Positions 10,787-48,833 of a stretch of DNA of 64,000 bases are shown piece by piece; positions within the stretch are counted from its first letter, which is position 1; every line of letters begins with the position of its first letter. The DNA lies in NCBI GenBank assembly GCA_043814605.1, contig JBDRJV010000037.1:31899-95898 (forward strand). Direction: 5' to 3'. A model generated the notes under the pieces. It had not been told where the DNA came from. It was given only the letters and a program-made list of their open reading frames with translations, and made no database searches. Origin of the DNA: Candidatus Omnitrophota bacterium. GTDB taxonomy: Bacteria; Omnitrophota; Gorgyraeia; B26-G9. The translations under genes and the position numbers were made by a program.

Positions 10787-12253
10787 ATGAAAGTAGTTAT
10801 TGCAAACTCTATAGGTGTTGACAAAAATAACAATTTTATAATTCATTCTCCCAGTCGTTGGTCAGAAGGAGTTAAAAGTAAATCACATTGGTTTGCTTAT
10901 TATCCTTGGGAACTATCCTATTTATCCAGTTTATTAAAAAAAGAAACTGATTTTAATATTAAATTTTTAGATGGTTGTTTGATGCAATGGGATTCAGAAA
11001 CATATTTTTCTAAAATTACAACTATTAATCCAGATGTTTTGATTATGGAAAGTGCAACCAGAATGATTGATGAAAATGTTAATCTTGCTCGGCGCATTAA
11101 ACAAAAATGTCAGGCAACGATAATTTTTGTGGGCCAGCACGCCAGTGCTTTTCCACAAGAATTATTAACCCAGGGTATAGATTATGTTTGTATCGGAGAG
11201 TATGAATATACTGTGCTGGAATTGCTGCAGAATAAGGATAAGAGGCAGATTTTAGGGCTTTATCCTAATCCCAGAAGAGATTTATTAGATATTAACAGTT
11301 TACCCTGGCCTGAGGATTCTGACGTAAAACGTATTGATTATGCATCTCCGGGGGAACCGAGTTCAGAATATCGAGAAATTCAAATGTATGCATCCCGGGG
11401 TTGTCCGGGATCCTGCAGTTTTTGCGTTGCCAGGCACGTTTACTACAACCAGCCGAATTGGCGACCGAGAAAAATAGAAAACATTATTAGCGAAATTATT
11501 TATTTAAAAAATAAATATCCAAAGATGGAAGGAGTTTTTTTTGATGAAGAAGTTCATAATGGCAGAAAAGACTTTATCCTGGATTTAACGCAAGCCATAA
11601 TCGATGCAAAACTGAATAATTTAAAATATGAAGCGATGTGCGATGTAAGATTTTTAGATGAGCAGATCTTAGGAGCAATGAAAAGAGCTGGTTATTACAA
11701 GATCAGAATCGGCATTGAAACAGCAAGCCGGAAAATTATGCAGCAAATTAATAAAAAAATTGATTTAAAACAGGTTTTTAATCTGCTAAAGCTGGCCCAA
11801 AAAATTGGCATAAAAACCTACGGTACTTTTACTTTCGGAGCGCCGGGCTCTAATGAAACTGAGGATAAAAAAACAATTTTACTAATTCAAGATTTAATAA
11901 ATAATGATTATTTAGATAACTTACAGCTTTCAATTTGCACTCCTCAGCCAGGAACTCCTTTTTATGAAAAAGTAAAAGAAAATCATATGCTGCGAAATGA
12001 TTTAACTTTTAATATTTTTGACGGGGGGAATCATTGCATTATAAATTATCCAGATTATCATTATAAAATTATTGAAAAAACTAAACAAAATGCATTATTG
12101 ATGCGAGATCATTTTTTTTTAAAAAATAAAATTCAAAATAAGACTTTTTTCCAATGGATTGGGAATGTTTATAAAAAACATGGAGTTTTCAGAAGCGCGG
12201 CAAAGGCTTTTTTTAGAATATTAACAGAAATTAAATTTTATTTCGTAAAATGA
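10787..12253 (+). CDS. B12-binding-domain radical SAM enzyme (subfamily B)
   Basis: The N-terminal region is Rossmann-like (VLIMESATR..IIFVGQHASAFPQELL..YVCIGEYEYT). It carries the LPWPEDS motif and the radical SAM motif ASRGCPGSCSFCVAR. Confidence 0.8.
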   Translation: MKVVIANSIGVDKNNNFIIHSPSRWSEGVKSKSHWFAYYPWELSYLSSLLKKETDFNIKFLDGCLMQWDSETYFSKITTINPDVLIMESATRMIDENVNLARRIKQKCQATIIFVGQHASAFPQELLTQGIDYVCIGEYEYTVLELLQNKDKRQILGLYPNPRRDLLDINSLPWPEDSDVKRIDYASPGEPSSEYREIQMYASRGCPGSCSFCVARHVYYNQPNWRPRKIENIISEIIYLKNKYPKMEGVFFDEEVHNGRKDFILDLTQAIIDAKLNNLKYEAMCDVRFLDEQILGAMKRAGYYKIRIGIETASRKIMQQINKKIDLKQVFNLLKLAQKIGIKTYGTFTFGAPGSNETEDKKTILLIQDLINNDYLDNLQLSICTPQPGTPFYEKVKENHMLRNDLTFNIFDGGNHCIINYPDYHYKIIEKTKQNALLMRDHFFLKNKIQNKTFFQWIGNVYKKHGVFRSAAKAFFRILTEIKFYFVK

Positions 12254-13143
12254 TTGAAATCAGCATTGTTATTGTAACTTATTCTGCAGAGAAATTCATA
12301 AAAAATTGTTTAGATTCTGTTTTTGCGCAGGATTTAAATAATTTTGAAGTTATTATTATTGATAATAACTCTGGCGATAATACTATTAATATCTTAAAGA
12401 AATATTTGTCAAAAATAATTTTAATAGAAAATAAAAAAAATGAGGGTTTTTGTTTCGCAACTAATCAAGGCATATTACTTGCAAAAGGAAAATATATATT
12501 TACTTTAAATAGCGATGTTTACTTAAGTAAGGACTACGTTTTAAATTTAAAAAATTTTTTAGAAAGAAATTTAGAAGCAGGCATGGCAGGGGGTAAATTG
12601 TTAAGAATGGATAAAATAACTATCGATACTATCGGCCTAAAATTGGGGGTTTTTTATCGGTTCTTAAATATCGCAGAATCGGAGAAAGATACGGGTAAAT
12701 ATAAAGTTCCTTTAGAAATTATGGGTCCTTGTGCAGCCGCGGCCTTATATAAGCGGGAGCTTTTAGAGAGTATTAGATATAAGGATGAATTTTTTGATAA
12801 TCAGTTTTTTTTCTTGGCTGATGATTTTGATATTGCCTGGCGGGCACAGCGAATAGGTTGTAAGGGGTTTTATGTTCCAAATGCAGTTTGCTGGCATTAC
12901 CGGGATAGTTCAGGGCATAAATCCCAGTTCAAACAATACCTTTCATTCAGAAACAGGTATTATTTATTGATTAAAAATGCGGGTTTTAAAACTGTTTTTT
13001 TGTTTGCATTAGGTTTTTTATTTTATGATTTTCCCAGGCTGGTTTTTCTTTTAATAACTAATACTAAGTATACAGCGAAAGCAATAGCGGAAATTTTTAT
13101 GAATATGCCTGAAATTTTATCAAAGCGTGTAAAAAAAATATGA
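12250..13143 (+). CDS. GT2 glycosyltransferase (rhamnosyltransferase-like)
   Basis: ISIVIVTYSAEKFIKNCLDSV..VIIIDNNSGDNT, TLNSDV and DDFDIAWRAQRIGCKGFYVPNAVCWH match the family. Paralogue of 49120-50097. Confidence 0.8.
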   Translation: MIEISIVIVTYSAEKFIKNCLDSVFAQDLNNFEVIIIDNNSGDNTINILKKYLSKIILIENKKNEGFCFATNQGILLAKGKYIFTLNSDVYLSKDYVLNLKNFLERNLEAGMAGGKLLRMDKITIDTIGLKLGVFYRFLNIAESEKDTGKYKVPLEIMGPCAAAALYKRELLESIRYKDEFFDNQFFFLADDFDIAWRAQRIGCKGFYVPNAVCWHYRDSSGHKSQFKQYLSFRNRYYLLIKNAGFKTVFLFALGFLFYDFPRLVFLLITNTKYTAKAIAEIFMNMPEILSKRVKKI

Positions 13144-14252
13144 AAAAATTTACAAGAAGAGAATTTTTGCAAAAAGGAATAGGTTTAAGTACTGCAGTGG
13201 TCAGCGGACAGTTATTCAATGAAAATGTTTTTGCGCGTAATATTAATTTAACTAAACCAAGTCTTGTTTCAATAGCTAAAGGAAAGCATATTTCAAAAAT
13301 TACACAGGAAGCAATTCAAGAAATCGGAGGTATGGATAAAATAGTAAAACCGGGGCAAACTGTATTCATAAAACCTAATTATATTGCGGGAGGATTTATG
13401 GGGCATGATCCGGTGACTTCCGGAGAAATCCCGCATCCGGAAGTAGTGGCGGCAGTGGCCTGTGAATGTTTAGAAGCCGGGGCAAAAAATGTATTGATTG
13501 GAGAATGGTTTGAACGCCCGTTAGAAATAATGTGGCAGGGAAAAGAAGGTAAAGAAGGAGCTCAATTAAAGAAAAAAATTGATTTAATTAATAAAAAATA
13601 CGGAAATAAAGTATATTTAATTGATCTAAGAAAATATACAGAATCATTTTTTTATGTGCCTTCTTTGACAAAGATTAAATGGCTGGCGATTCCGAATTTA
13701 GTTAAAGAAGCAGATGTTATTATTTCAATTGCTGTTTTAAAAACACATCATTACCCAATTTCCGTAACTTTTGGCATGAAGAATTTTGTCGGTATTATGC
13801 CTTCCATTCTTTATGGTGAGCCCAGAATGAAATTACATCAGGCAGGGATTAATCAGATAATCGTAGATATCATACGGGGAATAACGCCAAGTTTAACAGT
13901 GATTAGCGGTGTTTTTGGCATGGAAGGAGAAGGAGTTGTTAAATCTTTTGGTGGAATTTCGGTTGATATCAGTCAAAGGATTGGCGGATACATTGTGATC
14001 GCAGGAGTTGATCCTGTAGCTACAGATGCTATAGCAACCCGGATTATAACTGAAAATTGGCATCCACAACCTAAAAATACTGATTTAGGAGTTCCTTGGT
14101 ATATTAAACATTTGAGACTGGCGTATCAACAGGGATTAGGCAATATAAAAAAATCAAATATTATAATTAAAGGTGCAGCTTTGAACGAGGTAAAAATGCC
14201 CTGGAAAATGCCGCAAGCCAATACATATCCGGAGTTACCTAATTATGTTTAG
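13140..14252 (+). CDS. DUF362-like protein with twin-arginine (Tat) signal peptide
   Basis: The N-terminus MKKFTRREFLQKGIGLSTAVVSGQLFNENVFA has an RR-x-FL motif, a hydrophobic region and a VFA cleavage-like site. VFIKPNYI and VLKTHH blocks are typical of DUF362. Confidence 0.6.
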   Translation: MKKFTRREFLQKGIGLSTAVVSGQLFNENVFARNINLTKPSLVSIAKGKHISKITQEAIQEIGGMDKIVKPGQTVFIKPNYIAGGFMGHDPVTSGEIPHPEVVAAVACECLEAGAKNVLIGEWFERPLEIMWQGKEGKEGAQLKKKIDLINKKYGNKVYLIDLRKYTESFFYVPSLTKIKWLAIPNLVKEADVIISIAVLKTHHYPISVTFGMKNFVGIMPSILYGEPRMKLHQAGINQIIVDIIRGITPSLTVISGVFGMEGEGVVKSFGGISVDISQRIGGYIVIAGVDPVATDAIATRIITENWHPQPKNTDLGVPWYIKHLRLAYQQGLGNIKKSNIIIKGAALNEVKMPWKMPQANTYPELPNYV

Positions 14253-14826
14253 AAAAATAATTCAGATTTTAACAATAAGCATAATTTTTATTAGTTTCAA
14301 TAGGTATCTTTATGCAGAAAATTTATTTTATCCATTTGATGCCCGAGATATTACCGGGAAATGGCAGGAATCAGTAATCGAACAAGATGAGGTAATTAAG
14401 ACGGCATCCTTAAAAACAAAAGGAAAAATACAGTTAAATATCCCGGAAGATGGATTTTACCAATTATGCATTGAATTATATCACAATTGGCACAAATTCT
14501 GTCCTTTTATCTATTTTAATACGAGAGACAGCCAAGGAAAAACTTTTTCGGATTTTTTATTTTCAGAAAAACGATGGTATTTACCAGAAAATAGCGGCCG
14601 CTGGGAAATGAGGGCGCTGAGTGCAAATCCTTTTTGGTTTTTACATAAAGGTGAACTTAATATTGAATTCTGGCTCGAATCAAAACAATCTTGCTGGGAC
14701 AAACAGGATAAAGAAATAGAAGGAGAGTTTTATATTAAAAGATTTATTTTAGTAAAAGTTGATATGCTCGAAAAAAGCGATAAAAACTTTCAAACTAAAA
14801 ATTTAGAAAAAACAGAAGATTTTTAA
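14245..14826 (+). CDS. Secreted hypothetical protein
   Basis: 193 aa with an N-terminal signal-like helix (ILTISIIFISFNRYLYAEN). No recognisable motif. It overlaps the upstream gene by 8 nt. Confidence 0.4.
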   Translation: MFRKIIQILTISIIFISFNRYLYAENLFYPFDARDITGKWQESVIEQDEVIKTASLKTKGKIQLNIPEDGFYQLCIELYHNWHKFCPFIYFNTRDSQGKTFSDFLFSEKRWYLPENSGRWEMRALSANPFWFLHKGELNIEFWLESKQSCWDKQDKEIEGEFYIKRFILVKVDMLEKSDKNFQTKNLEKTEDF

Positions 14827-14832
14827 TAAAAA

Positions 14833-15675
14833 ATGAAAAATAATAAAAAAATATTTTTAACATTTGACCTTGAAGAATGGCCGATAAGAGGACGTTATAA
14901 GATAGATCCTAATTTTGAAAAAAATACAAAGTTTTCAAAAAATGGAACTTTAAAATTAATGGATTTATTTAGTAAATACAATATTAAGTGTACTTTTTTT
15001 GTCACGGGTTTTTTTGCGCAAAATGAGCCAGAAGTTATAAAACTGCTTTCAAGTAAAGGGCATGAAATAGGTTCTCATTCTTTTGCGAACATTAATTTGT
15101 TGGATTTATCAATAGAGGATATTTATTCTGAATTAAGTGCAACAAAAAAATTACTAAAGGATTTAACCGGGCAAAATATAGTTAGTTTTCGTGCACCATT
15201 TTGTTGGTTAACACCCGATATTATTAAAATCTTAGAAAAGCTAGATTTTAAATATGATAGTTCAATTCATCCGGCAATTATTCCCGGCTATTATTATAAT
15301 TGGAAATATCCGCTGGATCCCTATTATCTTTGTTTAAAAAGTAAGTCATTTTTTAATAATAAGAGTAATGGGGTTTTAGAAATTCCTATATCCGTAATTC
15401 CCAGGGTAAGATTTCCTATTTCCTGGTGGTGGATGAGAAATTTAGGCGTAGGGATAACTAAATTAGGGATGAATATGAATTTAAACCAAAACCGGTCAGT
15501 AGTTTTATATTTTCATCCCTGGGAATTTGATAATATCCCTAGAATTAAGGGTATTCCTTATCATTTGATCAGAGGGTGCGGCAAAGCCAATTTAAAAAGA
15601 TTAGAAATTATAATAAAATTGTTTATAAAAAAATACCCCTTTGGTAAGATGAATGACTTTTTAGCTAAGGAATGA
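14833..15675 (+). CDS. Polysaccharide deacetylase family protein (CE4 / DUF3473-like)
   Basis: LTFDLEEW and FFVTGFFAQNEPEVIKLLSSKGHEIGSHSF are the typical N-terminal blocks of the NodB/CE4-type deacetylase fold. Confidence 0.75.
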   Translation: MKNNKKIFLTFDLEEWPIRGRYKIDPNFEKNTKFSKNGTLKLMDLFSKYNIKCTFFVTGFFAQNEPEVIKLLSSKGHEIGSHSFANINLLDLSIEDIYSELSATKKLLKDLTGQNIVSFRAPFCWLTPDIIKILEKLDFKYDSSIHPAIIPGYYYNWKYPLDPYYLCLKSKSFFNNKSNGVLEIPISVIPRVRFPISWWWMRNLGVGITKLGMNMNLNQNRSVVLYFHPWEFDNIPRIKGIPYHLIRGCGKANLKRLEIIIKLFIKKYPFGKMNDFLAKE

Positions 15676-15814
15676 GAGATAATTAATCCGGTGAAGAGGA
15701 TTATTGCTAAACCCAATATAATATTTATTAAAAAATTAGGGACGGTTAAGTTTTAATTAGTTAAGATTTTTATATTTGAGTACAGTATTCCATAAAAGTT
15801 TAGAAAGAAAAGTT

Positions 15815-17362
15815 ATGAGAAAAATGTTTATGATAGTTGTATTCATGTTTTGCACAGTTTTAATTTATCTGGTAAGTTTATATTTATTTTCAAGAACTAA
15901 CATAGAATTATTTCCTCCCGATGAAATGGCCAAACTGACTATTGCTTTAGGCTATTACCAATACTTATTTTCCCCAGAGTTGATGCCGCAATCAAGTTTA
16001 TTTAGTGTAAATTTAAATTATTTCCCGCCGGTTTATTTTGTGACTTCAGCAATGGTCTGCCACTTATTTAACGGGTTTTCCATAAAAACATGTTTACTCT
16101 CAAATCTCATATATTTAGTTACTCTAATTATCTCTATTTTTTTTCTGACAAAAAAAATTAGCAAAAATGAAATGTGTGCTTTATTTGCACTATTTGTACT
16201 ATTATTTTTTGACCCTTTATTTTCTAGATTTTCAAGGCATTATGCAATGGAGTTTGGGGTAGCAAGTTTCGTTTGTTTATTTTTATGTGTTTTGGTTCAT
16301 CTAAATGAATTTAAAAATAAATATTGGTATATAGCGCTTGGCTTAATCTGGGCGATAGGGATGCTTATAAAATGGACATTTATTGTTTATGCTACAGTTC
16401 CATTAGGGGGCTTCATTTATACTTTAATACTAAATAAACGCAAACAAGAATTAAATAGACTTAAAATAAGTTTTTATGTGGGGGCAATAATTTTCGGTAT
16501 TTGGTTTATGTTATTTTGCGACCTATCTTTACTTGTGAATAAGTATTTCCGTACAATAAATCAGGAATCCGTTATTTTTGATATCGTATCGTATTTACAT
16601 TGTACTAAAGAAACATTTTTATTTTATTTAATATGGGTTCTTATTTATTTACCATTTTTATTATTTTTCTGGAAAATAAAATTTTCCTACAAAAAATTTT
16701 TATTAACCTGGGTAGGAGTTCCTTTTATTTTTTATTCTTTTTTTACCGGGTCGCCTTACAATAAGTATCTTATTCCGATAATTCCGGGATTAGCCGTATT
16801 GACAAGCGTAACAGTTTTTCGATTTAGTAGAAAACTTAAAAAATTTTTAATAATCTTGATTATAATAATTGGGCTGTTTATTTACGTATCAAATTGCTTA
16901 AATTCAGGCGATCGAGAAAAATGGAACATAAATAATATTGAAAATTTTAAAAAAATTATACAGATAATTAAAACTAAAGAAGATCCAGAAAATTTTAAAG
17001 ATTTATTATTGATCATAAATCAAGATACAATAAAAAGTAATGCTTTAAATGCTAATTCAATTTATTTACATTACTTATTAATGTTAGAAAAATTAAATGT
17101 AAATTTTACCCAGATGAATATTTATCATTTTAATAGAATTGAATGGTATGATTCAAGGGTGTTTCTTTCGAAAAATATTGTAGGTTATGACTATATTATT
17201 ATCTGCGATAAAGAAGATATTGATTTGCAAAGTATTAATTTTGATTTCCAAAGTTTTGAAAAATTAAATGAATATAATTTAATTTTAAAACATAATCAAA
17301 ACGAATATATATCGACAATTACATTTTTCAAAAAATTAATCCAAAATAAGAGTTTATTATAA
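15815..17362 (+). CDS. Polytopic GT-C-type glycosyltransferase (ArnT/PMT-like, DE motif in first loop)
   Basis: The track ORF starts at TTG 15776, but ATG 15815 (MRKMFMIVV) is more plausible. The first loop FPPDEMAKLTIALGY carries the D-E pair typical of PMT/ArnT loop 1. More than 10 TM helices precede a soluble C-terminal domain. Confidence 0.5.
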   Translation: MRKMFMIVVFMFCTVLIYLVSLYLFSRTNIELFPPDEMAKLTIALGYYQYLFSPELMPQSSLFSVNLNYFPPVYFVTSAMVCHLFNGFSIKTCLLSNLIYLVTLIISIFFLTKKISKNEMCALFALFVLLFFDPLFSRFSRHYAMEFGVASFVCLFLCVLVHLNEFKNKYWYIALGLIWAIGMLIKWTFIVYATVPLGGFIYTLILNKRKQELNRLKISFYVGAIIFGIWFMLFCDLSLLVNKYFRTINQESVIFDIVSYLHCTKETFLFYLIWVLIYLPFLLFFWKIKFSYKKFLLTWVGVPFIFYSFFTGSPYNKYLIPIIPGLAVLTSVTVFRFSRKLKKFLIILIIIIGLFIYVSNCLNSGDREKWNINNIENFKKIIQIIKTKEDPENFKDLLLIINQDTIKSNALNANSIYLHYLLMLEKLNVNFTQMNIYHFNRIEWYDSRVFLSKNIVGYDYIIICDKEDIDLQSINFDFQSFEKLNEYNLILKHNQNEYISTITFFKKLIQNKSLL

Positions 17363-18063
17363 TGAAAAATAAGCGTATTGCAATAATGCAGCCTGGATAT
17401 ATCCCCTGGTTGGGATTTTTTGAATTAATGGATAAAGCGGATTTATTTGTGTATTTAGATGACGTGCAGTATACAATCAGAGATTGGAGAAATAGGAATA
17501 GAATCAGGACGGCTCAGGGGTGGCAGTGGTTAAGTATTCCTGTATTGCATAAATCTAGACGGGAACAACTATTAAAGGATGCCTTAATTAATAATCAAAT
17601 TGATTGGAGGGGTAGTCATTTGCGTGCACTTGAGATTAATTATTCAAAAGCTAGTTTTTTTAGTAACAATTTTAGTGTAATAACGCAAATATTATTAAAA
17701 CATTGGGAAAATTTAACAGATTTAAATATTACAATGATTGAAGTTATCAGAGAATTATTAGGAATCAAAACTCCAACTATACGAGCATCTATGCTTAATA
17801 ATATTAAGACTGGTAAAACTCAACGAATAATTAGTATTTGTAAACAATTACAAGCAAATTATCTTTATGATAGCGCAGCAGCGGCTAGTTTTATTGATAT
17901 TGATTTGTTTGCAAAAGAGGGAATAGTAGTAGAATTTCAAAATTATAAACATCCTGAATATAAACAAGTATATAAACCATTTATTCCGTATATGTCTGTG
18001 TTAGACTTATTGTTTAACTGTGGGAGAGAAAGTTTGCAAAATATTTCTAATCGCAAAAAATAA
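17362..18063 (+). CDS. WbqC-family protein
   Basis: The N-terminus IAIMQPGYIPWLGFFELMDKADLFVYLDDVQY matches the WbqC-like signature (MQP-x-(Y/F)-x-P-(W/Y)-x-G-(F/Y)F..(F/L)DDVQ(Y/F)). TAATG overlap with the upstream gene. Confidence 0.7.
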   Translation: MKNKRIAIMQPGYIPWLGFFELMDKADLFVYLDDVQYTIRDWRNRNRIRTAQGWQWLSIPVLHKSRREQLLKDALINNQIDWRGSHLRALEINYSKASFFSNNFSVITQILLKHWENLTDLNITMIEVIRELLGIKTPTIRASMLNNIKTGKTQRIISICKQLQANYLYDSAAAASFIDIDLFAKEGIVVEFQNYKHPEYKQVYKPFIPYMSVLDLLFNCGRESLQNISNRKK

Positions 18064-18131: not shown

Positions 18132-18968
18132 GTGAGGCTAATTAAAGTTTTCAATCTTTGCGTTGTTTTTTTTGCGGTTTTTAGCTTTTTGTCAAAATAC
18201 TGTTTAGAAGCTGCAGATAATCAATGTTTTAAAATAGTTCCTTTTAAAGTAGGTCAATGGGTCGAGTATCAGATCGTTAGTTTAGAGGAGCAAAGTAAAG
18301 ATAATAGATATAAAATTTCAGTTTTAAATGAAGAAATCATTGATGGAGAAATTTATTTTTGGATTGGTTTTGATGTTTTTAACCAAGGAAAAAGAGAAAT
18401 ATCATTTAAGGCCTTAATGAAAAATTTTAAAACAGATGACTTAAAGCTTAAAAAAGAGCAATTTATAGCAGAAGGGATAATAAGTTTTTTCAAAGCTTCG
18501 GATAAACTTTATATAAAAGCAGGTGGTAGCGAGTGGGTAGAGGTTAATCCTAAAACGTACTTTTTAAATTTGAAACTATTAGAAAATTCGTTCTATGAAC
18601 AGGTTCCGGATGAACTAGGGAAAGTTGATTATTCTAAACTTGTGATGATTGGGAGGGAAGAGATTAATGTTTCTTCTCAGGAATTTAACTGTTTGCATTA
18701 CCAAGTAAAAACTAATCCTTCGGATGAATTTTCTGATGAAGGGATAGATTTGTGGCGCTCAGATAAAGTGCCTTTTTTAGGAATTGTAAAATTAGAATTT
18801 TCAAAAACTGATTACGATCTTAAGTTGCGCTATCAAGAAAGCAAAATCCTTGCTTCAAAAAGTATTTTTTATAAAATTTTTTATTACTTATTTAACAAAT
18901 TACCTAAAGATACGCATACTCGTAAAGATATTTATAAAATAAATTTGATTGATTATAAAAATTATTAA
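18132..18968 (+). CDS. Secreted hypothetical protein (paralogue-like to 60954-61658)
   Basis: GTG start and a signal-like N-terminus (LCVVFFAVFSFLSKYCLEAA). Blocks VPFKVGQWVEYQ, QEFNCLHYQV and DLW..FLGIVKL are collinear with FPLAIGNEWHYEQ, GDFFNCYKLI and GWYGKGVGKVK in 60954-61658. Confidence 0.4.
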   Translation: MRLIKVFNLCVVFFAVFSFLSKYCLEAADNQCFKIVPFKVGQWVEYQIVSLEEQSKDNRYKISVLNEEIIDGEIYFWIGFDVFNQGKREISFKALMKNFKTDDLKLKKEQFIAEGIISFFKASDKLYIKAGGSEWVEVNPKTYFLNLKLLENSFYEQVPDELGKVDYSKLVMIGREEINVSSQEFNCLHYQVKTNPSDEFSDEGIDLWRSDKVPFLGIVKLEFSKTDYDLKLRYQESKILASKSIFYKIFYYLFNKLPKDTHTRKDIYKINLIDYKNY

Positions 18969-24746: not shown

Positions 24747-24779
24747 AGTTATTTGCGTAAAAAATATCAGGATAATATA

Positions 24780-41972: not shown

Positions 41973-43166
41973 ATGTCTATTTCGAGAAGAAATTTTTTAA
42001 AAAATAGTTTAAAATTTTGTGCAGGAGTTGGATTATGCATCTTAACAAAAAGTTTCTGGGATAATTTTGAAAATACAGAAAGGATAGACAATTTTTTATT
42101 AAAAGAAGCAAAATATTATCGTAAAGGAAGTAACAATACTGTGCAATGCTTATTATGTGCCAGAAATTGTGTAATTAAGGATAAAAAAAGAGGGTTTTGC
42201 CAAGCCAGGATAAATAGTAAAGGTAAATTATTTAGTATGGTATACGGAAGTGTGATTATAACCCATTCAAAGGATAGACCGTTTAGGTCTTTGATTTATT
42301 TTGCTAATGATATTGAAGGGCTATGTATTGGTACAGCTGGATGTAATATGAGATGCAAGTTTTGTCTTGCCTCAGGAATTAGTCAGGTAAAACCTGAAGA
42401 TATTAAGATTAATAATAGATTTCCTTTTACTATGAATAAGAAACAAAATAAGACTCAGATTCTTCCAGATCAATTGATAAGCATGGCCAAAAAAAACAAT
42501 GTAAAATTAATTCATTTTAATCTTAATGAACCTACAATATATTATGAGTATATGCTAGATGTGGCAAAAATAGCGGTAAAAAATGGAATTTTTACAATGC
42601 TATGGAGCAATGCATATATAAATAGGGACCCTTTGCTTGAGTTAGCTCCTTATTTAGGCGGAGCGAGCATTGGATTGAAAGCTTTTAACAATGATATCTA
42701 TAAAAAGTTTTGCAGCGGAGAATTAAGTCCGGTTTTAGATACTTTAAAGTTGCTGAAAAAACAAAAAATTCCTTTTGAGATAATTTATCCAGTCATTCCG
42801 ACTGTTAATGATGATACTCAACAAATTAAAGATATGTGTTTTTGGATTAAAGATAAATTGGGTACGGAAGTGCCATTGCATTTTTATCGTTTCCTGCCTA
42901 GGTATAAATTAGTTAATTATCCTCCAACCCCTATCTCAACCTTGGAATCCATACAGAGTTTGGCTAAAAATACTGGTCTAAAATATGTATATGTTTTCTA
43001 TATGGGAGATTATCCTATCCCGGGCATGGAAGAAAAAATTTATTGTCCAAATTGTAAGAAATTAGTTTTATTACGTAAAAATTTAAATAATCTTGTAATA
43101 AATAATACGAAAAATTCCTGTTGTAAATTTTGCGGTGAAAAATTACTTTTTTTTATTTTTAAATAA
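41973..43166 (+). CDS. PflA/AmmeMemoRadiSam-like radical SAM enzyme with N-terminal twin-arginine signal and C-terminal zinc ribbon
   Basis: The N-terminus MSISRRNFLKNSLKFCAGVGLCIL carries the canonical S-R-R-x-F-L-K. AKYYRKGSNNTVQCLLCARNCVIKDKKRGFCQARINSKGKLF is the family-typical CxxCxxxC..G-x-C-x-x-R block. The radical SAM motif is GTAGCNMRCKFCLA. The C-terminus has CPNCKK..CCKFCGEKL. Confidence 0.7.
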   Translation: MSISRRNFLKNSLKFCAGVGLCILTKSFWDNFENTERIDNFLLKEAKYYRKGSNNTVQCLLCARNCVIKDKKRGFCQARINSKGKLFSMVYGSVIITHSKDRPFRSLIYFANDIEGLCIGTAGCNMRCKFCLASGISQVKPEDIKINNRFPFTMNKKQNKTQILPDQLISMAKKNNVKLIHFNLNEPTIYYEYMLDVAKIAVKNGIFTMLWSNAYINRDPLLELAPYLGGASIGLKAFNNDIYKKFCSGELSPVLDTLKLLKKQKIPFEIIYPVIPTVNDDTQQIKDMCFWIKDKLGTEVPLHFYRFLPRYKLVNYPPTPISTLESIQSLAKNTGLKYVYVFYMGDYPIPGMEEKIYCPNCKKLVLLRKNLNNLVINNTKNSCCKFCGEKLLFFIFK

Positions 43167-43234
43167 TCTAAATTATGGGAAAAATTTATTACTTAATACG
43201 ATTAAATAAAAAATTGAAAATTTATTAAAAATAT

Positions 43235-44644
43235 ATGAGAGTTCAATTTATTTTTCCGCCTTATACGCATAAAAAATTTGAAGAGGACATTTCAATTGTC
43301 AGCCGTAGATTTGGTATTTTCCCGCCGTTAGGGCTTGCATTTGCGGCGGCTATTTTAGAGGCACAGGGACATTGTGTGGATATTATTGATGCGCGGGCTT
43401 CGAATCTATCAAAAGAGCAGACACTGCAAAGAATAAAATATTTTCAGCCTAAATTACTGGGATTTATGCTCACGTTTTATATGTTTCATGATACTTTAGT
43501 CTGGATTAAATTTTTTAAAGAAAAAACTAATATCCCGATTATTGTCGGTAATGTATTAATGGAGTTTTTCCCGCAGGACGTGATGGCGTATCCTGAGATT
43601 GATTATGGAATTATTGGCTCCGCGCAAAAAAATTTACCGCTACTCATAGAATTTTTGGAAAATAATAAAAATATCGAAAACATTAGTGGGCTTTGTTATC
43701 GTAAAGATGGACAAGTAATTATTAATAAACCCAAAGAATTATTTGAGGATTTTCAGACTTTGCCTTTTCCGGCAAGGCATTTATTGCCTAATCATAAGTA
43801 CCATGCGGTAATGTCAAAACGTAAAAATCTTACGATAATGGTTACAACCCGTGGATGTGCCGCTAGCTGTAATTTCTGTCATATTAAAGATATTAAATAT
43901 TCAGCTAGGTCAGCCCAGATGGTTGTGGATGAAATGCAAGAGTGTTATGAAAAATTTAATGTGCGTGAAATTGAAATATTTGATCCTACTTTCAATATGG
44001 ATAAACGCAGAGTGATGGATATTTGCCAAGGCATAGTTGATAGAAAACTGGATATTGATTGGGCTTGCCGTGCGAGAATTGATTGCATGAACCCAGAAAT
44101 GTTGAAAATTATGTGTCAGGCTGGGTGCAAAAGAATATTATACGGGATTGAATCAGGCGATGAAAATATTCTTAAAAAAATTAAGAAAGGAATAAATTTA
44201 TCACAAATTAGAGATACGATTAAAGCTACCCAAGATTTAGGAATAAAGGCATTAGGATTTTTTCTTTTAGGGAGTCCCGGAGATAGTTTAAAAACTATTA
44301 ATAAAACAGTTAAATTTGCTAAAGAATTAAAGCTTGATTATGCGCAATTTCATAAAACAATAGCAAAACCTGGAACCGAATTGTACGACCAAGTTAAGAA
44401 TTATACAGGACGCGATTTATGGAGAGAATATATTCTAGGTAAATATCCAGAATCAAGATTACCTACGCCTTGGACAGATTTATCAGCTCAAACCATAGAG
44501 CAGTGCACTTATCAAGCGTATCGAAAATTCTATTTTAGAATTGGTTACCTCTGGCAAACTCTTAGAGGAATAAAATCATTTCATGAATTTAAGAGATACC
44601 TAGCTTCTTTTTTTGGTTTAATTTTTGAAAAACGGGATTATTAA
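43235..44644 (+). CDS. B12-binding-domain radical SAM enzyme (subfamily B)
   Basis: FPPLGLAFAAAILEAQGHCVDIIDA, LLGFML, LPFPARHLLPNHKY, VTTRGCAASCNFCHIKD and ILYGIESGDENIL. Confidence 0.8.
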   Translation: MRVQFIFPPYTHKKFEEDISIVSRRFGIFPPLGLAFAAAILEAQGHCVDIIDARASNLSKEQTLQRIKYFQPKLLGFMLTFYMFHDTLVWIKFFKEKTNIPIIVGNVLMEFFPQDVMAYPEIDYGIIGSAQKNLPLLIEFLENNKNIENISGLCYRKDGQVIINKPKELFEDFQTLPFPARHLLPNHKYHAVMSKRKNLTIMVTTRGCAASCNFCHIKDIKYSARSAQMVVDEMQECYEKFNVREIEIFDPTFNMDKRRVMDICQGIVDRKLDIDWACRARIDCMNPEMLKIMCQAGCKRILYGIESGDENILKKIKKGINLSQIRDTIKATQDLGIKALGFFLLGSPGDSLKTINKTVKFAKELKLDYAQFHKTIAKPGTELYDQVKNYTGRDLWREYILGKYPESRLPTPWTDLSAQTIEQCTYQAYRKFYFRIGYLWQTLRGIKSFHEFKRYLASFFGLIFEKRDY

Positions 44645-44659
44645 AAGGAATTAATTTAA

Positions 44660-46144
44660 ATGAAAATAATGTTTTATTATTCTGCCTTTGAAAATTTAGG
44701 CATTGAATATCTTTCTGCAGTTTTAAAACAATCCGGACATAAAACCCGCCTTCTCTTTGATCCGGGTTTATTTAACGACCCTTTTTTGAGTATTAAACCA
44801 TTGGCTAAAATTTTCAACTGGGAGAAAAAATTATTACGTGAATTTACCCAATACAATCCGGGTTTAGTAGCCTTTTCTGTGACGAGTTCAACTTATTTAG
44901 CCGCATTGGATTTTTCAAAAAAACTTAAAAAAATAACGAAAATTAAAATAGTTTTTGGCGGGATCCATGCCAGTGCAGTGCCAGAGGTTGTTATAAAGGA
45001 TGATGCAGTTGATTACTTAATTGTGGGTGAAGCAGAAGAAGCTTTATTGGAACTAGTCGAGGCATTAGAAAACAATAAACCGATTAATAGCATTAAAAAT
45101 CTGTGGTATAAAGATAGGTATAAAATCTTTAATAATTCTTTAAGAGACTATATTACTGATCTTGATAAACTTCCATTTCCAGATAAGGATCTTTATTATG
45201 ATCAAATTCCTGAATATAGAAGCGGGTATACAATAATTACCCGCCGGGGTTGTCCGAATCATTGTGCTTATTGCCATAATAGTTTATGGCATAAATTATA
45301 TAAAGATTATGACAGTGAAATTGTCCGGTACCGAGGGGTAGATAATGTAATTACAGAGTTAAAACAGGCAAAAAAAAAGTATAATTTTAAAAGGGTTCGC
45401 ATAAACGATGAAATTTTTACTCTTAATGAAGGCTGGTTAAAGGAATTCTCTGCAATGTATAAGAAATATATTAATCGGCCAATGTTCTGTTTTGTTAGTC
45501 CTCATACTGTAAACGAAAAAACTGTAGAATGTTTAAAAGCTATGAATTGTTATCAGGTTTGTATGGGTGTGCAAACTCTAAATGAAGAAAAGAATAGAAT
45601 CTTGTTAAACCGCAATCAAACTAATAATCAGGTAAAACAGGCAATTAAATTATTTCGTGAATATAAAATTCGTTGTGTTGTGGATAATATAATTGGTTTA
45701 CCTGGTGAAAAGGAAGAAGATTTATTGCAGATGGCAAGGTTTTATAATAATAACCGTCCCGATAGGATTTGTATTTTTTGGCTGATTTATTTCCCTGGGA
45801 CAAAAATTATAGATGCAGGATTAGAAAAAGAGGTGCTTAACCAAAAAATGCTAGAAGAAATTAAAACAAATCCGCAAGCTACAGCGAATACTATCTATAG
45901 TCTGTTACATGAAAGGGGCAAGAATAAGTATTATATTTTGCTTCTGCTGATACATTTTTTACCTAAAAATATTATTGATTTTATCATAAAGAAAAGATTA
46001 TTTGAATTATTTTCATTATTAAACCCCTCGTTGATTGAAATCCCTTTTACGATGATTGCTCGGGACAGATTAGATATAGTCAGACGCAGATATTATTCAC
46101 GTTATATCAAATATGGAATTAAAAAATTATTTTTAGTTGGATAA
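44660..46144 (+). CDS. B12-binding-domain radical SAM enzyme (subfamily A)
   Basis: MKIMFYYSAFENLGIEYLSAVLKQSGHKTRLLFDPGLF, VFGGIHASAVPE, LPFPDKDLY, ITRRGCPNHCAYCHNS and FLPKNIIDFIIKKRLF. Confidence 0.8.
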   Translation: MKIMFYYSAFENLGIEYLSAVLKQSGHKTRLLFDPGLFNDPFLSIKPLAKIFNWEKKLLREFTQYNPGLVAFSVTSSTYLAALDFSKKLKKITKIKIVFGGIHASAVPEVVIKDDAVDYLIVGEAEEALLELVEALENNKPINSIKNLWYKDRYKIFNNSLRDYITDLDKLPFPDKDLYYDQIPEYRSGYTIITRRGCPNHCAYCHNSLWHKLYKDYDSEIVRYRGVDNVITELKQAKKKYNFKRVRINDEIFTLNEGWLKEFSAMYKKYINRPMFCFVSPHTVNEKTVECLKAMNCYQVCMGVQTLNEEKNRILLNRNQTNNQVKQAIKLFREYKIRCVVDNIIGLPGEKEEDLLQMARFYNNNRPDRICIFWLIYFPGTKIIDAGLEKEVLNQKMLEEIKTNPQATANTIYSLLHERGKNKYYILLLLIHFLPKNIIDFIIKKRLFELFSLLNPSLIEIPFTMIARDRLDIVRRRYYSRYIKYGIKKLFLVG

Positions 46145-46177
46145 ATATTAAATTGATCAAAGTATCAGGATAAAATT

Positions 46178-47167
46178 ATGAATTCAGGATTATTGAATAT
46201 ATTAAAAATTGTTAGAATTTTTTTTAAAGTAAAATTTTTTAGAAATAAAATTCCTATTTTTGTGGGCTGGGATTTAACTTACAGGTGTAACTTTAATTGT
46301 CAATATTGTAAAATTCCGAAACTTGATACCGATCGAGAATTGTCAACGGATAAGGTGTTAAAAATGATAGATCAGTTTAGTAAACTTGGTGTTTGCCGTA
46401 TACATTTTGGTGGGGGAGAGGTTCTATTACGAGATGATCTTGATCAAATTTTAAAATTTTGTAAAAAAAGAAATATTTATACTGTTATTCTCACAAATGG
46501 AGCTTTATTTGAAGCTAAGATACCTGTTATAAAGAAAGCAAATCTAATAAAAGTAAGTTTTGATGGTCCTGCTAAAATTCATGATAATTTGCGTCATAAG
46601 GGGTCTTATAGTCAGATTGTTAAAGTATTAGTTTTAGCAAAAAAACTTAAAATAAAAGTAACGTTAAGTGCAACTTTAACTAGAAAAAATTATGAATATA
46701 TTGATTATATTTTAGATTTTGCTAAAGAAAATAGGACCCCAGTAAAATTTCAGTTAGTTAATGAGTTCTTGTCAGGATCTAAAGACATTGCTAATCTTAA
46801 GCTTTCCCGAGAGCAGCAGCAGAAGGCAATGGGAAAATTATTAAAGGAAAAAAAGAGGAGCGGGTATATAATAAATTCTAAAAATGCACTGGAGTATATG
46901 CGTGATTACCCAAATGTAAAAAATTTATGTTGTACGGCAGGAAAGCTTTATGTGCGTGTTTCTGTTGATGGAAGGCTATATCCGTGCGAAATACTAAAAG
47001 ATGAGTTTTTAAAAAATACATCTTTTGAAAAAGATATCGGTAAATCATTCAAAGTATTAAAAAATGTTAATTGTAAATATTGTTTATGTACTACAACATT
47101 AGAATTAAATCAATTATTTTCTTTAAATTTAAATGCAATTTTTAATGGGCTAAAGTATTTTAGTTAA
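46178..47167 (+). CDS. Radical SAM enzyme with SPASM/twitch-like C-terminus
   Basis: WDLTYRCNFNCQYCKIP and FGGGEVLLRDD are present. C-terminal cysteines occur in CCTAGKLYVRVSVDGRLYPCE and VNCKYCLCTT. Similar to 22287-23339. Confidence 0.75.
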   Translation: MNSGLLNILKIVRIFFKVKFFRNKIPIFVGWDLTYRCNFNCQYCKIPKLDTDRELSTDKVLKMIDQFSKLGVCRIHFGGGEVLLRDDLDQILKFCKKRNIYTVILTNGALFEAKIPVIKKANLIKVSFDGPAKIHDNLRHKGSYSQIVKVLVLAKKLKIKVTLSATLTRKNYEYIDYILDFAKENRTPVKFQLVNEFLSGSKDIANLKLSREQQQKAMGKLLKEKKRSGYIINSKNALEYMRDYPNVKNLCCTAGKLYVRVSVDGRLYPCEILKDEFLKNTSFEKDIGKSFKVLKNVNCKYCLCTTTLELNQLFSLNLNAIFNGLKYFS

Positions 47168-47387
47168 AATTTAATATGGCTAAGAACTAATTCTATATTA
47201 AGAATTATAGAAGAACTTTTCCGTGTTATTAATAAAAAAATGGTTCGATTGTGGAAACAAAGTTTAACGTTTTTTTTCGACAATATTGCTTTTGTATTTT
47301 TAGAATTGATAAACGAATCTTCAATTAGAAATAAGAACTGTAGTTTAAAAGTAATTTTTTTATTACCAACACTATGGAGGATGAAGT

Positions 47388-48833
47388 TTGAAAATATTAC
47401 TTATAGTTGAGGAAACTTTTTATATGGATAGACTGGGCATTTTATATTTAAGTTATCCTCTAAAGCGTTTCAACTATGATGTCAAACTTGCTGTTTTTGC
47501 TAAAGAGGGGTTTCCAGGAATAGAACAAATAATGCAAGAATATTCTCCGGATATTGTTGGTTATAGTATGATGACTGGTGAGTATAATACGCTTAATAGA
47601 GTAAATAAGTATTTAAAAAATAAATTTAATTTTTTATCAGTTTTTGGAGGTCCTCACCCGACATTTTATCCGGATTTAATTAAAGAATCCCATATTGACG
47701 CAATTTGTGTAGGAGAGGGAGATATTGCTTTTGCGGAGTTTTGTCGGAGAGTTAAAGAGAGCGATAAATATTGGCAAACTCCAGGGTTTTATGTAAAGCA
47801 TAATGGTAATATTTTTAGTAATCCACTATTATCTTTAGTTAAAGATTTAGACCAATTATCTTTTCCAGATAGAAAATTAATGTATGAGGCCCAACCTGAT
47901 GTCTATGAAGATGGAACCAAAGTTTTTATATCTTCTCGTGGATGCCCTTATAGTTGTTCATATTGTTTTAATAAAAAATATAATGATATTTATAAAAATA
48001 AGTCAATTGTAGTTCGTCATCGTTCGCCTAATAATGTAATTCAGGAAATTGATGCTACTAAGCAGGAATACGGATTAAGACATGTATTTTTTTTAGATGA
48101 TATTTTTACGATAAAACCTAAGGGATGGGTAGAAGAGTTTTCAACACTATATAAGCAAAAGATTGATCTGCCGTTTTCTTGTCACGTACGTGCAAATCTG
48201 GTAAGCGATAGTGAGATAAAACTATTAAAAAATGCCGGCTTAAATTCAGTTTTAATCGGAATAGAATGTGGGGATGAGAGAGTATCAAATGAAGTGTTAA
48301 ATAGAAATTTATCGAATAAAATAATTTTTCAAGCAATACAAATTTTAAAAAAACATGATATTAAAATATGGACACATAATTTATTGGGGATCCCAGTTAA
48401 GGATAGTTTCGAAGTAGGAATTAAAACGCTTGATATGAATTTAAAAATAAGACCAGTTTATGCCCATTCAGGCTTACTTTTTCCTTATCCTGGGACTGAA
48501 ATTCGGAAGCAATCATTACGAAATAATTTTTTGAATGAAAATAGTGTTTTTTTTGAAACTCATCAAAAATATTCAGTTTTTAATTTTAATAAAAAAGAAA
48601 AATCTCAGATTGAAAGATTGCATTATTTATTTGGATTAACAGTTCGTTTTCCTTTTTTACGTAAAATAATTAGATTGCTTGTAAAAATTCCTTTATCAGG
48701 ATTTTATTTTATGATTTTTTATGTTTGGTATGGATACAATCTTAAATTTAAATTTTTTCCCATGCAGTCTTGGACAAAAGAAATAAAAAAATATGTCAAA
48801 TTAGGGGAAAAGATACTAAAAAAACATAATTAA
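47388..48833 (+). CDS. B12-binding-domain radical SAM enzyme (distant member of subfamily A)
   Basis: TTG start, with the RBS-like ggagga ending 6 nt upstream of it. MDRLGILYLSYPLKRFNYDVKLAVF, VFGGPHPTFYP, LSFPDRKLMY, ISSRGCPYSCSYCFNK and LIGIECGDERVSNEVL. Confidence 0.75.
   Translation: MKILLIVEETFYMDRLGILYLSYPLKRFNYDVKLAVFAKEGFPGIEQIMQEYSPDIVGYSMMTGEYNTLNRVNKYLKNKFNFLSVFGGPHPTFYPDLIKESHIDAICVGEGDIAFAEFCRRVKESDKYWQTPGFYVKHNGNIFSNPLLSLVKDLDQLSFPDRKLMYEAQPDVYEDGTKVFISSRGCPYSCSYCFNKKYNDIYKNKSIVVRHRSPNNVIQEIDATKQEYGLRHVFFLDDIFTIKPKGWVEEFSTLYKQKIDLPFSCHVRANLVSDSEIKLLKNAGLNSVLIGIECGDERVSNEVLNRNLSNKIIFQAIQILKKHDIKIWTHNLLGIPVKDSFEVGIKTLDMNLKIRPVYAHSGLLFPYPGTEIRKQSLRNNFLNENSVFFETHQKYSVFNFNKKEKSQIERLHYLFGLTVRFPFLRKIIRLLVKIPLSGFYFMIFYVWYGYNLKFKFFPMQSWTKEIKKYVKLGEKILKKHN

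Follow-up and report, generated by a model that had tools for sequence, protein, structure and literature searches.

The stretch analysed here, called the window below, is a segment of 64,000 nucleotides (positions 31,899 to 95,898 of the forward strand) of contig JBDRJV010000037.1 from the Candidatus Omnitrophota bacterium assembly GCA_043814605.1, and nine of its genes encode radical S-adenosylmethionine (SAM) enzymes with a B12-binding domain, here termed B12-type radical SAM enzymes. The window has about 29% G+C and 49 open reading frames (ORFs) of at least 150 amino acids, all on the + strand, which are referred to by their first coordinate. From about position 54 to position 54290, 43 genes on one strand form a locus of at least 53.7 kb, which may continue upstream of the window. 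Annotation of the 49 ORFs with Pfam and NCBIfam models recognised 20 radical SAM enzymes in the locus, the nine B12-type enzymes and 11 others, namely six resembling tetraether synthase (Tes), also called GDGT-MAS, two with a SPASM domain and three of other kinds. The preliminary description of this DNA was thus right in its nine B12-type enzymes and undercounted the radical SAM enzymes as a whole. The same locus carries genes for three DegT aminotransferases, three family 2 glycosyltransferases (GT2), one family 4-type glycosyltransferase (GT4), four PMT_2 glycosyltransferases of the C fold type (GT-C), one deacetylase, WbqC and a Wzy_C protein, in addition to a DUF362 protein, two SAM-dependent methyltransferases and three unannotated polytopic membrane proteins with 8-10 transmembrane-like segments. 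It is a radical-SAM-dominated envelope glycoconjugate locus in which B12-type and Tes-like enzymes are combined, and its boundary is formed directly downstream by the division and cell wall (dcw) cluster mraZ, rsmH, ftsL-like, ftsI, murE and murF (54531-60939).

All nine ORFs lie where they had been described, and all exceed the Pfam gathering cut-offs of both PF02310 (B12-binding; 32.1 bits) and PF04055 (Radical_SAM; 29.5 bits), at 38-80.5 and 41-78 bits, respectively. A regular-expression search found a single CxxxCxxC motif in each, and RGCxxxCxxC is invariant in the nine-way alignment. Five of the enzymes belong to a family designated A, namely 20818-22284 (488 amino acids; PF02310 63.9 and PF04055 77 bits; C-terminal ILPAKSVNFLL), 35228-36715 (495 amino acids), 36739-38199 (486 amino acids), 44660-46144 (494 amino acids; C-terminal FLPKNIIDFII) and the more distant 47388-48833 (481 amino acids; TTG start; a hydrophobic tail without the LP-K motif). 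The remaining four are 10787-12253, 28860-30458, 40167-41591 (BchE/HpnJ-like; PF02310 80.5 bits) and 43235-44644. The proposal that the nine fall into two subfamilies held for the first of these, since 20818, 35228, 36739 and 44660 share 32-40% mutual identity and 47388 shares 26-28% with them; the proposed subfamily B dissolved into four separate deep lineages, which are 20-27% identical to one another and 19-25% identical to family A, with 10787 at 20-25% to the other eight. A recent tandem amplification of the B12-type genes was ruled out, because the nine paralogues are 19-40% identical in pairs and their orthologues are closer than their paralogues.

Most of the motifs quoted for these enzymes were recovered by regular expressions, with deviations in 20818, 36739, 47388 and 10787 and in the LGI motif. 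The form (L/T)LGI(E/Q)YLS fits 35228 only, the other members reading A/S/N/R-LGI; 36739 has IPYPDKKI instead of the LP form; 47388 has LSFPDRKL and lacks both DP.LF and the C-terminal (F/I)LP(K/P/A)(K/N); and LP(F/I/W)P(A/E)(R/Y)(D/H)L(L/M)P, quoted for subfamily B, is present in 28860, 40167 and 43235 and absent from 10787. At residue 102 of 20818 the sequence reads FGGIQ, with Gln replacing the His of GG-H that is at least 90% conserved in an alignment of 71 family A sequences, and this exchange may mean altered cofactor binding.

The AlphaFold2 (AF2) model of 35228 (predicted local distance difference test score, pLDDT, 92.7; predicted template modelling score, pTM, 0.91) comprises a beta-alpha-beta N-terminal domain, a radical SAM barrel and C-terminal helices, and the model of 43235 (pLDDT 94.0; pTM 0.92) has the same three-part layout. 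Both models show the Rossmann-type N-terminal domain on which the earlier class B assignment had been made to depend. Foldseek searches of the PDB with the two models gave TsrM, MgmA (9ccb), CysS, OxsB, TokK and AprD4 as the best matches, with E values of 1e-17 to 1e-25 (1e-17 to 1e-21 for 35228; 7.5e-25 for MgmA with 43235). The profile of the 71 family A sequences, aligned to solved B12 radical SAM structures, aligns with cobalamin-bound enzymes through the N-terminal domain, at profile positions 61-415 for CysS, 66-381 for TokK, 53-339 for OxsB, 77-153 and 191-382 for TsrM and 98-235 for MgmA, with GG-H-P and GEGE motifs in common. Pfam scores, profile alignment and models with their Foldseek matches thus all agree, and the nine are genuine radical SAM enzymes of class B architecture, composed of a Rossmann domain of the cobalamin type, a barrel with CxxxCxxC and helices that make up the C-terminal domain. 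A HemN-like housekeeping role, named earlier as an alternative, was rejected, as the HemN-type NCBIfam models scored 30-45 bits against cut-offs of 205-325 and HemN (1olt) ranked only 40th for 35228 and 34th for 43235 in Foldseek, with query-normalised template modelling scores (TMq) of 0.31 and 0.33 over the barrel only.

We infer that the nine enzymes use cobalamin, with indirect support for family A from its profile alignment. The fold alone is insufficient for this step because AprD4 and ArsL homologues share the architecture without cobalamin; they sit in the B12-radical SAM sequence network yet bind none (PMC12931638). A rather improbable alternative is that some or all of the nine are cobalamin-free and that their Rossmann domain is a structural relic as in those homologues; their radical reactions (dehydration, epimerisation or the formation of C-C bonds, for example) would then proceed without the cofactor, which is still compatible with the sugar-tailoring role favoured below. 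Pointing this way, besides the precedent itself, are the closest full-length structural match of 43235, which is AprD4 (highest template modelling score, 0.74/0.76), the Gln of 20818 and the distribution of cobalamin biosynthesis in Omnitrophota, described as "present but not universal", in <75% of genomes (PMC10066038). In the same direction, Rfam at gathering thresholds found no cobalamin riboswitch and no other RNA in the whole window, and no cobalamin biosynthesis (cob) or transport (btu) gene is among the annotated ORFs of the 64-kb window. Against it, the alignment of the family A profile with the five cobalamin-bound structures takes in the N-terminal domain, while that with the cobalamin-free AprD4 starts only at the radical SAM core (positions 165-405), and PF02310 is well above its gathering cut-off for most members. 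The spacing of S73-x-L75 and G100-G101 in 35228 is also much like what we take to be the SxL...GG of the classical cobalamin-binding motif, which counts against a cobalamin-free enzyme.

None of the nine reached the cut-off of any named NCBIfam family. The comparison was made with NCBIfam models, and the matches listed include no model of GenK/GenD1, Fom3, HpnP or GrsA/GrsB. HpnJ (TIGR03471, cut-off 577.6) scored 81-193 bits over the full set and was the best named match of 43235 (193.4 bits) and 10787 (152.5 bits), with alignments to both over the full length, and it scored 176.7 bits with 40167. BchE (TIGR02026, cut-off 481) scored 182.7 bits with 40167 and 164.8 bits with 28860, of which it was the best named match. 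The MJ_1487 model reached 104 bits with 44660 against a cut-off of 251, and family A matched the HpnJ, ladderane-type, PhpK, ApyD and BchE models about equally at ~90-115 bits. HpnR (TIGR04367), PhpK-type (TIGR04479), KedN5, TsrM-type (TIGR04428), ladderane-type (TIGR04072), MJ_0865/MgmA (TIGR04014) and BzaD (TIGR04385) models gave 26-135 bits against cut-offs of 360-700. On the AprD4 model (NF033070; cut-off 500) the nine scored 32-100 bits. Among PDB sequences, 35228 and 43235 both match AprD4 best, and the high structural similarity of 43235 to AprD4 leaves room for a mechanistic likeness to that family. The hopanoid context genes shc, hpnH, hpnG, hpnI and hpnK were not found above cut-off among the 49 ORFs, with a weak superfamily match only for HpnH, and a hopanoid or bacteriochlorophyll pathway was rejected because all scores were below cut-off and pathway genes were missing from the window. 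Judged by sequence, the enzymes appear to be new, unnamed families of a known superfamily, and our literature search on Omnitrophota, radical SAM and glycan topics found no published description of the locus or of these families.

A conserved hydrophobic C-terminal helix had been attributed to the nine. A hydrophobic C-terminal element is indeed present, but in family A only, where residues ~410-440 reach a Kyte-Doolittle hydropathy over 19 residues (KD19) of 1.6-1.95, interrupted by LP(K/P)K, and where P430 and P447 are at least 90% conserved in the 71-member alignment. It is not a clean transmembrane helix, because it is too short and too charged: the last 110 residues of the 71 members have a median maximum KD19 of 1.54 and a median net charge of +13, and the model of 35228 has short helices at 414-425 and 431-439, followed by three more. 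The 43235 family lacks the element (median maximum KD19 0.47, net charge +6, no member at 1.5), and 40167 has a hydrophobic extreme C-terminus (KD19 1.57 at residues 455-473). The family A tail thus appears to be an interfacial, cationic element of the form basic helix-Pro-helix that binds the membrane or the substrate.

Six further radical SAM enzymes combine an N-terminal zinc ribbon (PF23545, 46-59 bits, cut-off 27) with PF04055, and their radical SAM core is homologous to that of the GDGT-MAS structure 7tol. Four of them stand in tandem (23388-24746, 24753-26135, 26145-27512 and 27509-28855; 7tol E 6e-36), the fifth (30448-31851, 467 amino acids) matches the TrsS and Tes models at 139 and 129 bits, below cut-off, and the sixth (33882-35222) matches 7tol at 2.5e-30 over residues 6-389. 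On the Tes/GDGT-MAS model NF045702 (cut-off 450) the six scored 123-159 bits and the tandem four 148-159 bits. CxxC...CPEH and CNxxCPxC are invariant, and beyond the ribbon and the radical SAM motif there are only four invariant Cys (C131, C305, C404 and C417), which could be too few ligands for an enzyme of the three-cluster GDGT-MAS type; these paralogues are also 60-80 residues shorter than GDGT-MAS. The tandem four are 58-60% identical to one another and 45-50% identical to orthologues in related metagenome-assembled genomes (MAGs), so that, being closer to each other than to their orthologues, they would indicate a more recent, lineage-specific tandem expansion.

The SPASM enzyme 32930-33895 (PF04055 + PF13186) is a candidate sugar dehydrogenase, with BtrN as its best PDB match (E 3.2e-10, N-terminal core only). 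The second SPASM enzyme (2511-3572; PF04055 + PF13186) is NirJ1-like at the superfamily level (111 bits against a cut-off of 650). Two of the other three are unnamed, one with a MoaA-like core (22287-23339; PF04055 75 bits; MoaA 94 against a cut-off of 284) and one PTO1314-like (46178-47167; PF04055 85.9 bits; TIGR03961 119 against a cut-off of 306). The third, 41973-43166, is of the AmmeMemoRadiSam type (TIGR04337 231.3 bits, above the cut-off of 220), with no AMMECR1 or Memo partner among the ORFs of the window; its N-terminus is twin-arginine-like (SRRNFLK; MSISRRNFLKNSLKFCAGVGLC), which would imply the export of a folded iron-sulfur enzyme.

The glycoconjugate genes surround and interrupt the radical SAM genes. 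Upstream lie three GT-C genes of the PMT_2/ArnT type (837-2510, 4119-5555 and 5561-7057; PF13231; 6-10 transmembrane-like segments each), with a SAM-dependent methyltransferase (3569-4117; PF08241) between them and beside the SPASM enzyme 2511, followed by a DegT aminotransferase (7050-8282), an unannotated membrane protein with 10 transmembrane-like segments (8189-9676) and a GT4-type glycosyltransferase (9678-10781). The B12-type enzyme 10787 stands directly upstream of a GT2 (12250-13143), a DUF362 protein (13140-14252), a protein without annotation (14245-14826), a polysaccharide deacetylase (14833-15675; TIGR03006 118 bits against a cut-off of 276) and a PMT_2 GT-C (15776-17362). Then come WbqC (17362-18063) and two proteins without a Pfam or NCBIfam match (18132-20805), one of 278 amino acids and one of 618 amino acids with 8 transmembrane-like segments, and the orthologues of 18132 and 18949 co-occur with WbqC in related MAGs (L009, L010, L012, L013 and L016). 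The six-gene core cassette described below begins with a DegT/PseC-like sugar aminotransferase (31866-32933; PF01041 308 bits; PseC 249.5 against 423.5) and ends with a GT2 (38154-38918; PF00535), whose best named match is ArnC (75 bits against 529), a polyprenyl-phosphate sugar transferase. A third DegT, PseC/ArnB-like, follows at 38925-40139 (PF01041 418.7; PseC 369 against 423.5; ArnB 360 against 631). At the downstream end are a GT2 (49120-50097) and a Wzy_C/O-antigen-ligase-like protein (50091-51755), both syntenic in L003 and L008, an unannotated protein with 10 transmembrane-like segments (51758-53491) and a SAM-dependent methyltransferase (53697-54290), the last gene of the locus. The three polytopic proteins 8189-9676, 18949-20805 and 51758-53491 are candidates for novel GT-C-like transferases, flippases or polymerases. 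The locus has three DegT genes but no recognisable NAD-dependent sugar 4,6-dehydratase, dehydrogenase, epimerase or nucleotidyltransferase.

Other Omnitrophota MAGs carry syntenic loci with the same downstream end, at Wzy_C and mraZ/rsmH/ftsI; the junction with the dcw cluster recurs in L003, L008 and L058. A core of six genes, DegT 31866, SPASM 32930, Tes-like 33882, family A 35228, family A 36739 and GT2 38154, has orthologues across five other contigs that are mostly 47-65% identical, whereas paralogues within the genome are at most 41% identical; since the core orthologues are closer than the paralogues, the duplications are old and the copies distinct. By gene, identities were 47-61% for 31866, 45-58% for 32930 (adjoining DegT in L001 and L003), 51-65% for 35228 in five MAG contigs, 40-59% for 36739, which in five MAG contigs is always directly downstream of the 35228 orthologue, and 47-63% for 38154. 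For 33882 they were 52-54% in JBDRPX and JAKLQT and 36-42% for the best match in other MAGs. The weakest core orthologues are thus those of 36739 in CAZPCF (40%) and of 33882 in three contigs (36-42%), and a match to SPASM 32930 was missing in JAPLLW. Outside the core, MAG JBDRPX holds orthologues of 20818 (54%) and 28860 (82%); 44660 had no orthologue above 43% identity in the related stretches examined, and 44660, 47388, 10787 and 43235 had no clear orthologue within ±10 kb of the related loci examined. A conserved core with variable accessory radical SAM genes, as in polysaccharide loci, fits a diversified (combinatorial) product.

Family A is widespread. A pattern scan of species-representative genomes found 283 relatives, the best 80 of which were all from MAGs, of Omnitrophota, DPANN archaea, Thermodesulfobacteriota, Bdellovibrionota, Planctomycetota, Elusimicrobiota, Auribacterota and Acidobacteriota. 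In an exhaustive profile search, 24,374 cluster representatives, each standing for one cluster at 50% identity, matched at E <= 1e-30, and at least 150 of them, almost all full length, at E <= 1e-151. In Patescibacteria, DPANN archaea, Planctomycetota and other groups, the neighbours of family A genes include GT2, GT28, DegT, deacetylase, YdjC, GT-C and additional radical SAM genes, and three neighbourhoods, in Patescibacteria, an archaeon and a third genome, contain GT2/GT28-type, deacetylase/YdjC, DegT and more radical SAM genes. Arrays like the present one were found as well, with seven family A-like and four Tes-like genes in L015, nine B12-type and two Tes-like genes in L039, and six family A-like and four Tes-like genes with SPASM and DegT in L042 (Planctomycetales).

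Fusions link the nine to the same gene types. Family A is fused to Tes-like (P0163 and P0252) and SPASM (P0145 and P0155) radical SAM domains, to class I methyltransferases (P0125, P0191 and P0253) and to a GT4 (P0250), the last confirmed on a 32.8-kb contig. A GT2 is a frequent C-terminal fusion partner of the 43235 family, with at least seven cluster representatives built in this way, one of which adjoins DUF2079, PMT_2, SPASM radical SAM and GT2 genes. Because the fusion partners are of the gene types that flank the nine, they are the strongest computational evidence for a role in sugar-transfer pathways.

Some of the related loci have features of their own. In L084 (60-10855) a family A-GT4 fusion is followed by a CDP-alcohol phosphatidyltransferase, a B12-type radical SAM enzyme, DegT, a split thiamine diphosphate enzyme, an iron-dependent alcohol dehydrogenase and a nucleotidyltransferase, a gene set that looks reminiscent, by analogy, of phosphonate (2-hydroxyethylphosphonate) head-group pathways with Fom3-type B12 radical SAM enzymes. 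In L004 (12496-18597; Patescibacteria) GT2, deacetylase, DUF2079 and two Peptidase_U32 genes are interspersed among seven genes for B12-type radical SAM enzymes; the U32 family includes O2-independent hydroxylases, whose presence would fit anaerobic tailoring of sugars or lipids. L035 and L042, both of Planctomycetota, have arrays of B12-type and Tes-like radical SAM genes with SPASM and DegT.

Considering these results, we propose, with slightly more confidence than doubt, that the enzymes of the locus tailor lipid-linked amino sugars by radical chemistry. The amino sugars would be made by the logic of BtrN/BtrS, in which a radical SAM dehydrogenase is paired with a DegT aminotransferase, with SPASM 32930 oxidising a sugar hydroxyl and giving the keto group to the adjacent DegT 31866. 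An ArnC-like GT2, for example 38154, would load the sugars onto polyprenyl-phosphate or another lipid, and the deacetylase would remove N-acyl groups. On the cytoplasmic side of the membrane, the B12-type and Tes-like enzymes would then tailor the sugars at unactivated carbons, through C-methylation and/or through C-C rearrangement or contraction of the ring; the basic, hydrophobic C-terminal helices would keep family A on the membrane. Finally, GT-C enzymes of the ArnT/PMT_2 type and the Wzy_C-type ligase or polymerase would deliver the product to an envelope acceptor. The cassette DegT-SPASM-Tes-like-family A-family A-GT2 would make the common part of the product, which the accessory radical SAM enzymes, differing between genomes, would diversify. 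In aminoglycosides, GenK/GenD1 carry out C-methylation, AprD4 acts in deoxygenation as a diol dehydratase and BtrN performs dehydrogenation, and these are precedents for radical chemistry on such sugars. A bolder and unlikely extension is that the locus makes an envelope glycolipid or glycan with many modified carbons by a hitherto unknown route that needs no oxygen at all; the B12-type enzymes would add several C-methyls or contract sugar rings, and the Tes-like enzymes would make C-C cross-links, be it inside a lipid-linked sugar, from one such sugar to another or from sugar to lipid.

Several points weigh against the tailoring of lipid-linked sugars. The matches to ArnC, BtrN, HpnJ and BchE are all far below the family cut-offs. 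The cobalamin-free precedents of AprD4 and the ArsL homologues, the likeness of 43235 to AprD4 and the Gln at the conserved His position of 20818 bear on the cofactor. To our knowledge, the sole characterised members of the Tes superfamily act on lipid tails. Annotation of the window yielded no flippase (Wzx-type), no initiating phosphoglycosyltransferase and no nucleotide-sugar synthase, and many Bdellovibrionota loci have a single family A gene with no adjoining glyco-gene by BLAST probes, which are insensitive. The radical SAM enzymes could act on the sugar while it is bound to a nucleotide or to a lipid, on the finished glycan or on a lipid moiety, and the chemistry could, as far as sequence can tell, be methylation, ring contraction, dehydration or C-C coupling.

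The Tes-like enzymes lead to a second account, which we consider unlikely, namely that they and the B12-type enzymes couple, cyclise and methylate hydrocarbon chains, after the fashion of Tes, GrsA/B and the methylases of glycerol dialkyl glycerol tetraethers (GDGTs), while the glyco-genes add head groups only; the target would be a lipid like GDGTs or branched GDGTs (brGDGTs), lipid A or polyprenyl chains. All six zinc-ribbon enzymes match 7tol (2.5e-30 to 6e-36), the Tes model is among their top NCBIfam matches, family A is fused to Tes-like domains and Omnitrophota have been reported with Mss and Hbs homologues. The hydrophobic C-terminal helical element of family A recalls GrsA/B, whose AlphaFold models have a Rossmann domain, a TIM barrel and a C-terminal helix predicted to bind the substrate (PMC13459092). 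However, the same six enzymes reach only about a third of the Tes cut-off, are shorter than GDGT-MAS and have few additional Cys; fatty-acid, ether-lipid, isoprenoid and glycerol-phosphate acyltransferase genes were not found within the window; the locus is dominated by three DegT, eight glycosyltransferases and Wzy_C; and the GT2 and GT4 fusions tie the B12-type enzymes to sugar transfer.

Quite improbable is a diffusible, aminoglycoside- or aminocyclitol-like product, on which the enzymes would act as GenK/GenD1, AprD4 and BtrN do on a pseudo-oligosaccharide. This account takes up AprD4 as the best PDB sequence match of 35228 and 43235 and the best by template modelling score for 43235, BtrN as the best PDB match of a SPASM enzyme that adjoins DegT as in BtrN/BtrS, and the several DegT and glycosyltransferase genes. 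It has to contend with the low scores on the AprD4 model, with four GT-C, Wzy_C and polytopic membrane proteins that point to periplasmic assembly on a lipid carrier, and with a fixed position upstream of mraZ in several MAGs, unlike that of a mobile secondary-metabolite cluster; moreover, no 2-deoxy-scyllo-inosose or inositol-phosphate synthase, resistance gene or exporter was recognised in the window. Maturation of a ribosomally synthesised and post-translationally modified peptide (RiPP) of the proteusin kind, with B12 C-methyltransferases of the PoyB/C type and SPASM enzymes modifying a precursor peptide, has the SPASM enzymes and below-cut-off matches to rSAM_ocin_1 (54-94 bits) and ApyD (61-139 bits) in its favour and was rejected as very improbable, since a listing of small ORFs in the + strand intergenic gaps of 41.5-56.4 kb held no plausible precursor, leader-peptidase, RiPP recognition, YcaO, lanthionine or ABC-exporter genes were not found in the window, and the neighbours and fusion partners are glycosyltransferases.

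The dcw cluster continues after murF (60954-63130, + strand) without mraY, with a DUF3108-like protein (234 amino acids, below the Pfam cut-off) and then an unannotated protein of 482 amino acids with two transmembrane-like segments and a weak tetratricopeptide repeat match. G+C falls to ~25% across 48000-54000, which holds the GT2, Wzy_C and unannotated membrane protein genes, against 29-33% elsewhere; low G+C is common for the polymerase and ligase genes of variable polysaccharide loci. A scan for promoters and terminators was uninformative (75 promoter-like sites against 89 ± 10 in shuffled sequences). Seven ORFs (54-833, 8189-9676, 14245-14826, 18132-18968, 18949-20805, 51758-53491 and 61682-63130) had no Pfam match at E <= 5 and no NCBIfam match.

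Cobalamin-type radical SAM enzymes are among the largest uncharacterised enzyme groups, and no named NCBIfam model fits family A, for which gene neighbours and fusions suggest lipid-linked amino sugars as a concrete and testable class of substrate. Twenty radical SAM enzymes lie here beside the cell-division cluster in an arrangement conserved across a phylum of ultra-small anaerobes, which suggests that these lineages tailor sugars by radical chemistry in place of reactions that depend on NAD or O2. The surface molecules may be chemically unusual, a point of relevance to host attachment, phage resistance and biomarker chemistry. In environmental lipid studies, homologues of Tes and GrsA in bacterial MAGs are taken as evidence of brGDGT potential, and Planctomycetota is the phylum with the most bacterial 'Tes' and 'GrsA' homologue matches reported as brGDGT markers (PMC11868695). 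Arrays of distant Tes-like and B12-type genes in glyco-loci of Omnitrophota and Planctomycetota might inflate such counts, and some of the Planctomycetota matches may be genes of this kind. Should the cross-linking extension be true, it would give the Tes superfamily a new role and define a new class of bacterial surface molecule, common in variable form to Omnitrophota, Planctomycetota, Patescibacteria, Elusimicrobiota and DPANN archaea.

Among known systems, the solved class I B12 radical SAM enzymes (TsrM, TokK, CysS, OxsB and MgmA/QCMT) have the same three-part architecture with an N-terminal cobalamin-type domain and superpose on the present models with TMq 0.61-0.70 at 14-18% identity. 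Their C-terminal domains differ from those found here, however, and their substrates are amino acids, carbapenams, polyketide methyl ethers, nucleotides and protein, not glycoconjugates. The aminoglycoside enzymes GenK/GenD1, AprD4 and BtrN with BtrS perform radical SAM chemistry on amino sugars, as proposed here, and in BtrN/BtrS a DegT-family aminotransferase likewise stands beside a SPASM enzyme; they are distant (E 1e-9 to 1e-24; 14-18% identity in structural alignments), their aminocyclitol core genes are missing here, and the GT-C and Wzy_C genes, like the constant place of the locus in the chromosome, speak for a polymer or lipid of the envelope and not for a secreted antibiotic. The archaeal GDGT-modifying enzymes (Tes/GDGT-MAS, GrsA/GrsB, methylases and calditol synthase) combine B12-type and Tes-type radical SAM enzymes as this locus does. 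The zinc ribbon (CxxC...CPEH) and radical SAM core of 7tol align with the Tes-like enzymes, the C-terminal helix of the GrsA/B models is thought to bind substrate, a likeness to family A by description only, and calditol synthase remodels a sugar head group. Differences are the Tes score of a third of the cut-off, the bacterial genome and a locus without lipid-core genes.

The Arn pathway (ArnB, ArnC, ArnD and ArnT), one of the three-component GT2/GT-C glycosylation systems, is paralleled by the DegT, the polyprenyl-phosphate-type GT2, the Polysacc_deac_1 enzyme and the PMT_2/ArnT-type GT-C, although all matches are below equivalog cut-offs, an ArnA-type dehydrogenase/formyltransferase is missing here and the Arn pathway itself uses no radical SAM enzymes. 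The hopanoid side-chain pathway HpnI/HpnK/HpnJ has a GT2, a deacetylase and a B12-type radical SAM enzyme that contracts the ring of a glucosamine head group. It differs in that HpnJ scores only 152-193 bits here against the cut-off of 577.6, the window is without squalene-hopene cyclase, HpnH and HpnG, the deacetylase is of Polysacc_deac_1 and not YdjC, and nine such enzymes stand with 11 other radical SAM enzymes. What it shares with the locus as read here is the logic of a GT2, a de-N-acetylase and a B12-type radical SAM enzyme that would all serve a lipid-linked amino sugar: among named families, HpnJ matches 10787 and 43235 best, 10787 lies upstream of a GT2 and the deacetylase, and locus L006 pairs family A with a glycosyltransferase and a YdjC-type protein. 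HpnI/HpnK/HpnJ and calditol synthase are precedents for radical SAM enzymes that act on lipid-linked sugar head groups (PMC13459092).

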